A DNA stretch of 64,000 nucleotides, taken from an uncultured Chloroflexia bacterium. Its GTDB lineage: Bacteria > Chloroflexota > Dehalococcoidia > UBA2979. The stretch covers positions 256,001-320,000 of the forward strand of contig CAVSIV010000002.1 of the NCBI GenBank assembly GCA_963728205.1, read 5' to 3'. A program made the position numbers and the translations under genes. Numbering within the stretch: the stretch's first letter is position 1; the number at the start of each line of letters is the position of its first letter. The notes below the pieces were generated by a model. That model was not told the origin of the DNA. It saw only the letters and a program-made list of their open reading frames with translations, and did not search any database. Below, piece by piece: positions 2,955 through 17,459 of this stretch.

Positions 2955-5572
2955 CTAGCTGAAGGGGCAGGGGGGTACGTTCGTCATCAGCCACGCGCCC
3001 TGCGCGGTCTGCTGGAACGTCCACTGCTGCGTGACCACCTGCTGCGGCCCGGTCGCCGAGTGGATGCCGAGCCGCAGCTGCACGGCGGCCGTCTGGCCGT
3101 CGGCAGCGATCGTGATCGTGCGGCCGATCACGTTGAAGTCGGCGCCGCCGGGCACGCAGGCAGCGAGCTGCTGCCGCTGGTGTTCGCGCGCCTGGACCTG
3201 CTGCTGGGTCTGCGCCTGGCCCTGCGCGCAGTCCGCGTTGCCGTCGCATGACGCGAGGTGCAGGCGCGACTGGTCGCGCTCGCGCATCGCGTACGTGACG
3301 GCGTCCGTCGCCGCGAGCAACGCCGCGTGCGCGCTGCCCTCGGCAGGGGCCTCCATGAAGTCGAGCGAGACGTCGCCGTAGCCGCCGCCGACCTGCGTCC
3401 ACAGCACGTCGCCGGGGTTGATCGTCGTGAGCGAGTTCACGGTTGCCGGCGCGCCGGGGATCCAGCTGAGCCACCGGCCGGAGGCCTCGTCGTACTTCGA
3501 CACGGTGGTGACGGCGTCACCCAGCGCGAAGAACATCTCGTAGGGGCCCATCGCCTGCAGCGTGGTCGCCGTGACGGCGTTCAGGCCGGCGAGCAACTGC
3601 TGCTGGCGGAGGCCGTTTGCCGGTGGGACGACTACGGTGTGCTGATACTGCAGCCTGCGCGCCCTCGGCGAGCCGCACGATCACCGCGTCGCGCGATTGA
3701 AGCTGCGTCAGCGTCTGCGTCGCCGCCGGTGCGCCCGGGATGTAGGTCTCCAGCGCCTGGGTCTCGGCGTTGAAGCGGAACATGCTCTGCAACTGCGCCC
3801 CGAATTGCGCGGCGAACTGCTCCACGGGAGTGCCGTCGGCACCGCTGAACGTAATGTAACTGAGGCCCCCGTTGAGCATGCGCGTCTCGACCGGCAGCTC
3901 GAAGAACGCGTACAGCGACAGGTGGTTCGTCGTGAACGTCACCGTGCCGTCGTTCTGCGTCGTGGTCGGGACCTTCGTCCAACCCGTCGTGTCGTCGTCC
4001 CAGCGCAGCACCTGCACGCGGTCGAGGTCGACCGTCGTCGGGTCGATCTGCACGGAGACGGCGATGTCCCTGCTGAAGCTGGTGATCGCCGAGCCGCCGG
4101 CATCCAGCACCTGGAGGTCATAGGTCTGGTCCCCGATGGAGAGCAGGCCGCCGACGGGGTGGTGGAGCGGGTGGGCCAGCGCCGCATCGAGGTCGACGGG
4201 CGTGGCGACGATGCGGATCGCGCCCTGGCCGGCCGCGAGCCCGTTACCGGGATCGAGACCGTGACGCGGCCGTCACCGGACCGGGCGACGAGCATCCGCT
4301 CGCCGTTGACGGTCGTCGCGTCGGTCGCCGGGTTGAGCGTCGCGTCGATCAGGCTCGCGGTCGAGCCGGTACCGCCGCCACTGCCGCTGCCGCCGCCGAC
4401 GCCCTGCGGCGGGACCGGCGACGTGCCGCCACCGCTGCCGTCCGAGGGCGGAGCAGGCCAGCTTCGAGACGTTGACCGTGACGTTCGCGGTGTCGGAGCC
4501 GCCCGCGCCGTCAGAGATGGTGTAGGTGAACGAGTCCACGCCGGTGAATCCGGTCGCCGGCGTGTAGAGCACGGACTTCCCGTCCGCGCCGACCGTCGCG
4601 ATGCCCTGGGCCGAGGAGCTCACGGCCAGCACCTTCGCCACGACGGATGAGCTGAGCGTCGTGCTCGACACGTTCGCGGTGCCGATGCCGGACACCGAGA
4701 GCGCGTTGCCGTCGGCGTCGGAGTCGTTCGCCAGCACGGCGAGCGAGTTGCTCGTCGTGTCCTGGGTGACGGTGAACACGTCGTCCACGGCCACCGGCGC
4801 GTTGTTCCTGCCGCCGCCGCCGCCGCCGCCGCCGCCGCCGGACGTGTCGCCGACGACGACCGTGATCGAAGCAGAGTGGGCCGCGAACGTACCGAGGTCG
4901 GTCCCCGCGATCTCGAACCGTGGGCACCGTGGCATTCAGGGTGTACGTGCCGGCCACGGCGGGCCGCCAGTTGTACCCGTATACGACGCGGCCGGTGGCG
5001 TTGAGCTCGGCCGTGAACGCGACCGACTCGGTCGCCGGGCCCGTGATGTCCAGCGTGACGCCCGCGTCCCAGACGCCCACTTCGCTGAACGGCGTGACGC
5101 CTGATCCGTCGGCGGTGCCATACGCCGAGTAGCGGTCTTCGAGCTCCGGCTGGAGCTTGACGACCGTGAAGCCCGTCATGCTGTACGCCGTCGGGTCCGC
5201 GAGCAGCGCGAGCTCGACGCGGGCCGGGCTGCCGACCTTGATCGATGCGGACCCCGCGAGGTTGTCGCCCCAGGCGGCCGTGGCCGTCATCGTGTTGTCG
5301 GCGGCGACGTCACAGTCCGCCTGCCACGTTGCTTCGCCCTGAACCCAGTAGCCCGGGTACGTGCTCGACACCTGGGCCGGGTCGGGCAAAAGAGTGTCGT
5401 CCTCTGCCGTACAGGCGAGGCTGCCGACGCCGACGCTCGGCACGAAGATGGATGGCACCGAGAGGTTGTTCGCAACCGTCGTTTCCTGTGCGAGGGATGG
5501 TTGCAGAGAGATGAGCGCCGTCGCGAGGACGGCTGCTCCGGCGACCGCGTGTCGCCATCTGAATCCACGCAT
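2955..5572 (-). pseudogene. Paralogue A of the secreted surface-protein family, broken by four apparent frameshifts (true pseudogene or sequencing error)
   Basis: Start MRGFRWRHAVAG at 5572 with AGAGG upstream. Homology to paralogue B continues across ORF-track pieces 4511-5947, 4273-4935, 3939-4295, 3517-4110 and 2955-3596, with frame changes near 4917, 4459, 4245 and 3654. Confidence 0.8.
4810..4839. repeat. (CCG)n microsatellite encoding a poly-Gly linker; equivalent run at about 7676-7706 in paralogue B
   Basis: gccgccgcc... run read directly; it encodes about 10 Gly on the minus strand. Confidence 0.85.
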
Positions 5573-15206: not shown

Positions 15207-17459
15207 ATGGCGCACCACTGGAGTCCCCTGACCAGAGTCCTGGTCATGCTGGTCACGCTGTTCGGGGTGCTCGGCGCGGTCTTCTACGCGCCGGGCACGC
15301 TCCGTCTCGCCGGCGCGTCGCCGGGTGAGGGCTGGCGAGCGAGCGAGACGGCGACGTTCGTGACGGTGATGTGCGAGGGGCCGGACAAGATCCCCGGCAA
15401 CGCCGACGACCGCCCGCGGAACAACCCGGAGGCGGCCGGCACGGCGTCGTTCGTCTACGACGAGACGTCGGGCACGTGGACGATCTCCGGCGTGCTCACG
15501 ACGATCCGCGCCGGCAAGTACCGGCTGGTGCTGGCGAACACCGGTTCGGCCGACTCCGCCGTGTTGAGCGAGTTCGACGTGCCCGACGACGGCGATGACC
15601 ACGTCGACTGGCCGTACGAGATCACCGGCGTCGCCATCACGTCGCCCGACCAGTACAACGTCCTCCAGCTGATGCGGAACGGGCCGCCGTGGGGCGGCGG
15701 CGGCGCCTGCACCGGCGACCACGCCGGACAGGGCGGCAGCGGCGGCGGCTGCGGCGGCCACGAGACCGGCGGGGAAACCGGCGGTGACACCGGTGGCTGC
15801 GGCGGCGAGGAAGGCGGCGAAGAGGGCGGCGAGACCTGCGAAGGCGGGCACGAGCCAACGGCGACGCCTACCGCGGCGCCGACCGAGACGGCCACGCCGA
15901 CCGCGACCGAGACCGCGACGCCGACCGAGACGGCCACGCCGACCGCGACCGGGACCGCGACGCCGACCGAGACGGCCACGCCGAGCGCGACCGCGACGCC
16001 GACGGGAACGGCGACTGCGGGCGCGAGCCTCGCGTCCGGTGGACCGACCGGCTCGACCCAGCTCGCCGCCGGCACGGAGGACGAAGGCGAGGCCGGCTCG
16101 CAGTGGCGCTCCGAGATCGAGGCGCGGTTCTCGCTCTCGGACTTCGTCACGGTCACCGTGATCAAGCAGGCGTCCGCGAGCGGCGTTGCGGCGCCCTCCG
16201 CCGACACCGAGTACGCGCTGACGCTCTCCTGCTCCACCGAGCCGGAGCCGATTGCGATGCTCCTCAAGCCCGGCCAGTCGTCCGTCCAGCGCATCCACCG
16301 CGACGCGCTGTGCTCGTTGACGGAGGCCGACGCGATGGGCGCCACCGCCGTCTACGGCCTGGTGACCGACCAGGTGATGGCGACGAACCGCACGATCGTC
16401 GTGACGAACTACTTCCACGTCGAGGCGCCGCCCGAGCTGGTTGAGCCGGCGCCCGTGACGCCGCCGCCGGCGGAGAGCCTCGTCGTGCACGAGACGCTGC
16501 CCACCGCCGGCGCGCCCGGCGGGCGCCTGCACGCCGCGTCGTCGGATGGCTCCGTCGTGATCGAGGTTCCCGCGGCGGCCGTCGCCGGGCACGCGCAGGT
16601 GGACATCGCCGTCGACGACCCGGCGCTCGAGAGCGCGCTGCCGCACCCGTACCACCACCCGACGGGGAACCTGCTCGCGATCGGTGGCCGCGCGCTGGCG
16701 ATCAGCGTCAGCGATCCCGCGACCGGCGAGAGCATCACGCAGTTCGACCCGCCGGTGTCGTTCTCGATCCGCGTCGACCTGAACGACGTCGACCCGTCGT
16801 CGCTACGCGCGATGCGCTGGGATGACGTCACGCAGCACTGGATCGAGCTGCCGACGAGCGTGACGCCGGACGGCGTCGTGACCTTCACGACGTCGCACCT
16901 CAGCCTGTTCGGTCTCTTCCACCTGCCGACGCGCCACCTCGACCTGCAGGAGGGCTGGAACGTCCTCACGTTCACGGGGCCGAGCGGGACGCGCACGGCC
17001 GACCTGGCCGCCGAGATCGGCGGGGTGCTCGAGGAGATGTGGCGATACACGCCGGGCGTCGGCTGGCTCGCCGTCGGCTGGTGCCCGACGTCGGACATCC
17101 GGCTGGTGAAGGGCGACGTCGTCGCGGTGCGCGTCTACGAGCCCGAGACGCTCACCCTGACGTCGCTCGCCGACTCCAGCCCGTCCGAGCGTGCGACGAC
17201 GCTCCGCGCCGGGATCAACGCGCTCTCTGTGAGCGGTCAGCGCCCGGTCGACGTCTCCGAGCTGTTTGCGGCGATCGGACCGGCGATCGACACGGTTGCG
17301 CGGTACGACGCTGCGTCCGGGCGCTGGACGACGTGGATCCCCGGCGGTCCGGCGTGGGTGTCCAGCGCGTTCGTCGTGCAGCCGTACGACGTGGTGGCGA
17401 TTCGCGTCCGCTACGACGTGCGGGTGACGCTGCCGGACGTGCTGGTGGATCTGCGCTGA
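15207..17459 (+). CDS. Paralogue D (750 aa): N-terminal signal/TM, different passenger region with a Gly/Glu/Cys/His-rich segment and PT linker, then HPYHHP + TSHLS domain and IPG(G)P repeat; lacks the terminal Cys domain
   Basis: Intact ORF with GAGAGG upstream. WDDVTQHWIELPT...FTTSHLSLFGLF and WTTWIPGGPAWV align with A-C. Confidence 0.85.
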   Translation: MAHHWSPLTRVLVMLVTLFGVLGAVFYAPGTLRLAGASPGEGWRASETATFVTVMCEGPDKIPGNADDRPRNNPEAAGTASFVYDETSGTWTISGVLTTIRAGKYRLVLANTGSADSAVLSEFDVPDDGDDHVDWPYEITGVAITSPDQYNVLQLMRNGPPWGGGGACTGDHAGQGGSGGGCGGHETGGETGGDTGGCGGEEGGEEGGETCEGGHEPTATPTAAPTETATPTATETATPTETATPTATGTATPTETATPSATATPTGTATAGASLASGGPTGSTQLAAGTEDEGEAGSQWRSEIEARFSLSDFVTVTVIKQASASGVAAPSADTEYALTLSCSTEPEPIAMLLKPGQSSVQRIHRDALCSLTEADAMGATAVYGLVTDQVMATNRTIVVTNYFHVEAPPELVEPAPVTPPPAESLVVHETLPTAGAPGGRLHAASSDGSVVIEVPAAAVAGHAQVDIAVDDPALESALPHPYHHPTGNLLAIGGRALAISVSDPATGESITQFDPPVSFSIRVDLNDVDPSSLRAMRWDDVTQHWIELPTSVTPDGVVTFTTSHLSLFGLFHLPTRHLDLQEGWNVLTFTGPSGTRTADLAAEIGGVLEEMWRYTPGVGWLAVGWCPTSDIRLVKGDVVAVRVYEPETLTLTSLADSSPSERATTLRAGINALSVSGQRPVDVSELFAAIGPAIDTVARYDAASGRWTTWIPGGPAWVSSAFVVQPYDVVAIRVRYDVRVTLPDVLVDLR
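15860..16020 (+). repeat. Tandem PT(A/E)T(A/E)T repeats (Pro/Thr linker)
   Basis: Units such as ccgaccgagacggccacg and ccgaccgcgaccgagacc recur. Confidence 0.8.

Follow-up and report, generated by a model that had tools for sequence, protein, structure and literature searches.

A probable self-cleaving MAIN/ZU5-type domain paired with a candidate envelope anchor in four surface proteins of an uncultured Dehalococcoidia bacterium

We examined a 64,000-nucleotide stretch (henceforth the window; positions 256,001 to 320,000, forward strand, of contig CAVSIV010000002.1, assembly GCA_963728205.1) from the genome of an uncultured Dehalococcoidia bacterium of the phylum Chloroflexota (henceforth G000; 4.1 Mb in 6 contigs, 89% complete). 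Four genes at positions 2955–17459, named A to D, probably encode surface proteins built from a detachable passenger, a self-cleaving tether of the MAIN (Microbial Autoproteolysis INducing) domain type and an envelope anchor made of two modules that we call IPGAP. By analogy with MAIN domains of other bacteria, we are rather confident that A–D would cleave themselves. The pattern of IPGAP best fits a non-covalent envelope anchor, a reading with good chances of being right; release of the passenger as the physiological purpose is a tentative proposal. A preliminary description of the locus had suggested the same mechanism, which is probably right but already known. New here are the combination of this mechanism with an as yet unnamed candidate anchor in Dehalococcoidia and the occurrence of members without a passenger; the locus mainly extends an already described self-cleaving display to this class.

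Fold and cut site of the MAIN/ZU5-type domain

C (10733–15118, 1461 aa) and D (15207–17459, 750 aa) are unbroken genes on the plus strand, opposite to A (2955–5572) and B (5878–8437). The domain order claimed in the preliminary description (signal peptide, passenger, Pro/Gly/Thr linker, domain, IPGAP repeats) was borne out in all four proteins, as was the difference between their passengers: a domain referred to as WGDNL is present once in A and B and twice in C, and D has an unrelated region instead. Beyond that description, A, B and C each contain a Big_9 Ig domain (Pfam scan) and, 3' of the IPGAP repeats, a C-terminal domain with four cysteines (4-Cys). The H-[LF]-S motif lies exactly where it had been placed (TNHLS at 3916–3930 and 6827–6841 on the minus strand, TTHFS at 14159–14173, TSHLS at 16890–16904). 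The strict pattern proposed around it describes B and C and misses A and D, because these have W-D-x5-W and not x4. A relaxed form occurs four times in the six frames of the whole genome and is thus found only at the A–D locus. Pairwise identity among the four domains is 36–73%, and a profile built from them scores its own members at E 1e-57 to 1e-62.

The domain is a beta-sandwich of ~135 aa ended by the H-[LF]-S motif and a last strand. It spans 3883–4254 in A (minus strand; H-L-S at 3916–3924, N-terminal strands in another frame beyond 4245), 6794–7213 in B (minus strand; H-L-S at 6827–6835), 13796–14206 in C (plus strand; His1145-Phe1146-Ser1147 at 14165–14173, with the predicted cut between Phe and Ser) and 16512–16937 in D (plus strand; H-L-S at 16896–16904). 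An AlphaFold model of residues 1001–1327 of C, covering three domains and based on an alignment of 24 sequences, reached a predicted local distance difference test score (pLDDT) of 91.8 and a predicted template modelling score of 0.84. Within it, DSSP assigns strands to residues 138–145 and 148–153; His145 closes the first, and the turn leading into the last strand is made up of Phe146-Ser147, in agreement with the earlier claim that the scissile bond stands before this strand.

The GAIN/ZU5-like fold that had been proposed is also what structure comparison returned. The top Foldseek match of the C domain model was an ankyrin ZU5 (E 1.1e-4), and among the top 20 rows of a VIA search of 48,161 chains, 17 were ZU5 (5), GAIN (9) or FIIND (3) domains (Z 5.0–8.6), the other 3 being unnamed axonemal chains. 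The best VIA match, again ankyrin ZU5 (Z 8.5, root-mean-square deviation (rmsd) 3.5, 116 aligned residues), hardly exceeds the background of 7–8 of this tool and so counts for little by itself; CD97 GAIN gave Z 6.8 (rmsd 4.1–4.3, 127–131 aligned residues) and BAI3 Z 6.1. It is the agreement among rows, and not any single Z, that carries the fold assignment of the modelled domain. Eight VIA rows end at model residue 146. In GPR97 this position corresponds to residue 249, the Leu within H-L-T; in NLRP1 and GPR56 residues 1212 and 382 are aligned to it, which we take to be the residues preceding the cut. Profiles also weakly match the proteolysis sites (GPS) of the receptors ADGRF1, ADGRB2 and ADGRG3 (E 0.03–0.06), with H-x-S/T in register. 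Two other PDB matches were discarded: titin, the top match of a 34-row profile (E 1.4e-4), was aligned over the first 40 positions only and was judged a beta-strand coincidence, and the only match from a single-sequence search of the domain was a chance His-tag.

Scans of the window proteins against Pfam and NCBIfam gave no family for the A–D domain, IPGAP or WGDNL. The A–D domains are not matched by Pfam ZU5 (PF00791); a G000 paralogue reaches 17.3 bits against a cut-off of 21, and 1 of 34 members matches at E 0.00045.

His and Ser/Thr proved to be conserved across homologues: of 68 distinct homologous domains, 60 retain H-x-S/T (HLS 16, HFS 15, HLT 15, HFT 13, HIT 1) at 20–30% overall identity, with an exchange between Ser and Thr as at catalytic sites. 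This weighs against the view that the domain acts like that of ankyrin, as a spacer or protein-binding module of the ZU5 type, left uncut or cut harmlessly into halves that never part, in which case A–D would be permanent surface adhesins. We consider that view unlikely, even if the nearest solved folds are those of ankyrin ZU5 and the motif is absent in 6 of the 68 matches (the remaining 2 are truncated, and the search profile itself favours the motif). The best structural matches, the ZU5 domains of ankyrin, ZO-1 and UNC5, serve as binding modules, and no cleavage is known for them. A spacer would also suit the passenger-less members described below, which have nothing obvious to release, and release by force was not shown for the MAIN domains in the preprint that described them; several of these do cleave, however, with Ser-to-Ala controls (Brogan & Rudner, bioRxiv May 2026, 10.64898/2026.05.12.724683).

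The claim that the architecture is uncharacterised had to be abandoned. According to the main text of the same preprint (10.64898/2026.05.12.724683), MAIN domains are GAIN-B-like, are represented by B. subtilis YfkN and occur in ~15,000 proteins ordered as signal peptide, adhesion or enzyme domains, MAIN and anchor. The cut was located between Phe and Ser of HFS by Edman degradation, is abolished by Ser-to-Ala, and leaves products that stay associated. The same domain type, layout and release model are therefore in print, with cleavage proven for other members. Bacterial surface ZU5 domains have been in print since 2012, when Zhang et al. brought ZU5, GPS and Nup98 domains together in one superfamily and described its occurrence in polymorphic toxins and in large bacterial surface proteins that also carry adhesion and enzyme modules (PMC3482391). 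The main text of the preprint makes no mention of Chloroflexota, Dehalococcoidia or ZU5, and its supplementary tables may list such proteins.

A–D share with MAIN proteins the GAIN-B-like sandwich, the H-X-S/T in a turn ahead of the last strand, the order of signal peptide, passenger and domain, Ig- or cadherin-like passengers and the proposed release. They differ in that the anchor slot is filled by an IPGAP pair and not by a sortase signal, SLH or a known wall-binding domain, in the further domain that A–C have behind the anchor, and in the WGDNL passenger, which has no Pfam family. The ZU5 autopeptidases (PMC3482391) are alike in that the best fold match of C is a ZU5 and that relatives in the class have the SpvB-like layout, whereas A–D have no toxin or RHS part and T-x-H replaces C-x-H. 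Adhesion G-protein-coupled receptor GAIN domains (CD97, BAI3, GPR97, latrophilin) and FIIND (NLRP1/CARD8) are similar in fold (Z 5.0–6.8) and in the register of the cut site. In A–D, however, the helical GAIN-A part is missing (the C model has one 5-residue helix, and a Pro-rich linker and Big_9 stand upstream of the domain), the GPS cysteines are lacking (0 Cys in the four domains), and no seven-transmembrane (7TM) or other signalling output follows the cut: the last 75 residues of A–D contain no hydrophobic segment (19-residue mean 0.55–1.11), and the Pfam scan gave no 7TM family.

In the mechanism that we favour, A–D would be exported by Sec to the surface of the Dehalococcoidia bacterium, and the MAIN domain, once folded, would undergo an N-O acyl shift that severs the bond from Leu/Phe to Ser in its H-[LF]-S motif. 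The final strand (S-L-[YF]...) would remain within the sandwich, so that the Ig-like passenger would stay bound non-covalently to the C-terminal piece. The two IPGAP modules of this piece would bind a component of the cell envelope, as SLH or LysM do, and a pull on the adhesin-like passenger would detach it. Some facts weigh against the proposal. It took SDS or heat to set YfkN free, whereas detachment under force is a proposal of the authors, and cleavage is stated for 'nearly all' tested MAIN domains, four of the five in Fig. 2G being named (10.64898/2026.05.12.724683). Moreover, the likeness of A–D to MAIN is one of fold, motif, site and the order of parts up to the domain.

IPGAP modules as candidate anchor

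3' of the cut, A–D carry two alpha/beta modules of ~75 aa with the core Y-I-P-G-A-P. In A the pair occupies 3381–3882 (minus strand; modules 3661–3882 and 3381–3602, with a frame break in between) and in B 6292–6793 (minus strand; the first module at 6572–6793, the second split by a frame break, with its larger part at 6292–6471). In C it lies at 14207–14707 (plus strand; modules 14207–14428 and 14486–14707), and in D at 16938–17417 (plus strand; first module diverged). None of 22 IPGAP copies matched a known wall-binding family in Pfam/NCBIfam at E up to 1, nor did a PDB search return a relevant entry. A fold search with the three-domain model as query gave weak RCK_C/HPr-like rows only (Z 4.6 or less), and literature word searches, which were not exhaustive, found no description of the module.

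The MAIN-type domain is usually followed by a surface anchor, and this flags IPGAP as the likely non-covalent anchor of the lineage. Behind 63 distinct domains, the tail was IPGAP in 27 cases (3 also with LysM), a membrane tail in 12, SLH in 3 and something else in 21, and IPGAP was never combined with a membrane tail or with SLH; this sample is biased to the query, and two of the 'other' tails score as IPGAP with a wider profile. Within the host family, 42 genomes other than G000 gave matches; of 29 loci taken from these, the best one per genome, 27 carry IPGAP tails (20 by hidden Markov model, 7 diverged ones by eye) and 2 have sortase-like ones. G000 itself has IPGAP on 34 reading-frame segments, none of them with a C-terminal membrane tail. 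By raw count, a signal-like hydrophobic stretch lies upstream in 28 of these; the six without one include four fragments of the A–D family. Carriers include a sortase, SH3b+3D proteins, CAP, an S8 subtilase, I42 and AMIN-like proteins, with IPGAP at the N-terminal end, at the C-terminal end or internally. In this IPGAP resembles SLH (PF00395) and LysM (PF01476), which it matches in neither profile: it is small, tandem, usually terminal and found on many unrelated secreted proteins, and SLH fills the same slot behind the domain in other proteins.

G000 encodes 3 class A penicillin-binding protein (PBP) transglycosylases and 7 sortases, on which ground a host without peptidoglycan was rejected, and no SLH match was found in this 89% complete genome. 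Cultured strains of Tepidiforma, also of the Dehalococcoidia, have been reported to possess peptidoglycan and an S-layer, with unexplained complexes on either side of it (PMC10284905), and the anchor idea would be testable there if the strains carry IPGAP. Across the class (at most 28 matches scored per genome), IPGAP was detected in 54 of 201 genomes, of which 44 also encode a class A PBP transglycosylase. All 38 genomes with at least three IPGAP matches do so, and the 10 genomes without the enzyme have 1–2 matches each. The 44 genomes belong to six families, and this is therefore a lineage pattern and not independent proof of a link to peptidoglycan. The link is further weakened by the 44 of 88 transglycosylase-positive genomes that have no IPGAP matches, and the anchor role by the members in which IPGAP and LysM stand together.

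These same observations speak for an alternative in which the domain does cleave itself but IPGAP is a sorting, folding or partner-docking tag, with the proteins secreted or assembled into a complex, untethered. Wall binding by IPGAP is backed by neither a family nor a solved structure, the RCK_C/HPr-like fold matches are weak, half of the enzyme-positive genomes do without the module and some enzyme-less ones have it. Look-alike clusters in the Atlas (0.95–0.96, unnamed) are commonest in Thermoplasmatota, which is only a lead given their few annotated members and scores below the recognition threshold. Even so, we assign this alternative a low probability. On the same domain, IPGAP occupies the position that is otherwise taken by SLH, membrane or sortase-like tails, and no overlap with these was seen; it stands at either end, in tandem, on wall-acting enzymes; and in A, B and C a folded domain lies behind it, unlike a cleaved terminal sorting signal. 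The envelope anchor thus remains our preferred reading of IPGAP. The module may reach beyond Chloroflexota, as the Atlas clusters hint. The class of the host was taken to be Dehalococcoidia from the close relatives of another G000 IPGAP protein, 55 of 59 loci being labelled Dehalococcoidia or Chloroflexota.

Two further sets of IPGAP proteins were noticed. Within the window, just beyond a tRNA-Gly gene, 1036–2520 (plus strand) encodes a secreted protein whose N-terminal part looks glycoside-hydrolase-like by eye and which has SH3b and one C-terminal IPGAP, without a MAIN domain. Elsewhere, L069, L072, L075 and L077 (family f16) are conserved secreted proteins of ~1300 aa with a single terminal IPGAP; the scanned part of L069 matched nothing in Pfam, and these proteins are candidates for a major envelope protein.

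Relatives and passenger-less members

The domain is common, with 38 matches among 1.84 billion representatives, two of them being B and A themselves. At the genome level it is present in 50 of 201 genomes of the class and 43 of 99 of the host family, with eight copies in G000. A word-index homologue search covering proteins of 30–802 aa yielded none among 1527 candidates; no relatives were found by locus searches that started from the domain pair of C, from WGDNL or from the 4-Cys domain, and tblastn against plasmids gave no matches. In three relatives (P0009, P0019, P0028) the domain stands before SLH triplets (E 1e-7 to 2e-4), and in other families of the class it precedes SpvB-like/RHS-type regions (L020, L021, L023, L025, L028, L034); these are layouts known from the MAIN paper and, for polymorphic toxins, from the ZU5 paper (10.64898/2026.05.12.724683; PMC3482391). 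One relative matches the archaeal PGF-pre-PGF model weakly (E 8e-4).

A group of proteins consisting of a signal peptide, a short linker, the domain with an intact HF[ST] and an anchor speaks against a simple display-and-release role. Such passenger-less proteins recur, three times in G000 (C6:609017-609901, C6:625595-626560, C6:627326-628966 (L056, L057)) and in several relatives. Those of G000, together with L161 and L168, have a Pro/Thr linker, an intact H-F-S and a hydrophobic tail, and several carry ahead of the tail a P-x-[DT]-T-G-like motif that recalls sortase substrates. The converse case is P0040, which has WGDNL and a diverged IPGAP with the domain absent. From these two kinds of sequence it follows that the MAIN-type domain is apparently optional for display and is retained even where there is little to release. 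The intact sites of the passenger-less members pose a question beyond the reach of the release model. The three G000 genes share their region with genes resembling those for polysaccharide synthesis and with a sortase that itself bears IPGAP (C6:632695).

One answer would be that the strands which stay on the envelope after cleavage serve as docks that can be used again, i.e. that freed N-terminal fragments rejoin the stubs of other members, including the passenger-less ones, by strand complementation, giving an exchangeable coat. The eight domains of G000, three of them passenger-less with an intact H-F-S, the recurrence of such members in other genomes of the family and the similarity of the last strands would all fit. 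If true, docking would account for the conservation of passenger-less MAIN proteins with intact sites and would amount to a swappable surface coat. On the other side, no MAIN domain is known to refold extracellularly on a strand from another protein, and the passenger-less proteins may be adhesins themselves, so that we judge docking to be improbable. The combined proposition, that IPGAP is an undescribed anchor of peptidoglycan-bearing Dehalococcoidia and that self-cleaved MAIN stubs serve there as reusable docks, is equally a long shot. A detachable passenger on an anchored stub is still the account we prefer for A–D.

Other arrangements of the domain were also seen. A truncated fifth paralogue (L009, G000 C6:621012-621737) is reduced to the final part of the domain (H-L-T) with two IPGAP modules, and directly follows a gene resembling a helix-turn-helix regulator. 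Tandem double domains occur in L015, L157, L170, P0018 and L038, the second copy being without H-x-S/T in P0018 and L038.

Passengers, gene duplication and flanking features

The WGDNL passenger (4922–5488 in A and 7712–8350 in B, both minus strand) belongs to an unnamed family with 86 matches, mostly stand-alone hypothetical proteins of 230–450 aa; few genomes of the phylum have it (2 of 301). The model of the B domain (pLDDT 95.7) is an Ig-like beta-sandwich with long inserted loops; its core has generic matches up to Z 9.2 over ~100 of 213 residues, Foldseek found no match at E 0.001, and the best Atlas value was 0.77. An enzymatic role is unsupported, the structural matches being generic Ig-like ones only. 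Asp, Asn and Glu are invariant and a Cys pair is conserved, which together suggest a putative ligand or metal site. C has two such domains, the first with a Gly-rich insert, followed by a CarboxypepD_reg-like region (below cut-off), Big_9 and a Pro linker; in B the Big_9 domain (PF17963) spans 7403–7669 (minus strand). D starts with a hydrophobic N-terminus, and its passenger, with Gly/Cys/His/Glu-rich and Pro-Thr tracts, is shared with the full-length relative P0024 (37% over the whole length). The Gly/Cys/His/Glu-rich tract (15690–15850, plus strand) is expanded in P0024 to repeated Cys-Glu-Asp units, a composition that suggests a metal-binding or disulphide-linked segment. As a whole, the passengers of A–D look like adhesins or binding proteins and not like enzymes or toxins. 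The 4-Cys domain closes A (2958–3365, minus strand), B (5881–6276, minus strand) and C (14723–15115, plus strand; weak match to NF051431 Rv0361_Cterm, E 0.004, below cut-off) and was found in none of 98 other genomes of the host family.

A and B form a tandem duplicate: where they align, their nucleotides are 73% identical, and in 300 nt of the WGDNL region the value rises to 95%. As assembled, A is in five pieces, with four frame changes near 4917, ~4460, 4245 and 3655, and B has a single one near 6454. Measured against a rough background of frame breaks (4 junctions in 38 conserved loci, 13,385 aligned residues), which is probably an underestimate, the one break in B is expected (P 0.23) and the four in A are not (P 1.6e-4). 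Since the background is probably too low, the sequence of A would be either decaying or badly polished in the assembly, and A may be a pseudogene.

Some features of the flanks may be added. A gene for an AMP-binding protein (long-chain acyl-CoA ligase-like; 8626–10416, minus strand) separates A/B from C/D. The tRNA-Gly(TCC) gene (2724–2799, plus strand) adjoins the 3' end of A; an island inserted at this tRNA was considered and rejected, no second copy (at least 16 nt) of either tRNA end being present in the genome. Directly past the stop codons of A and B lie two related imperfect palindromes (2887–2932 and 5828–5873), which are perhaps terminators or elements similar to repetitive extragenic palindromes (REP).

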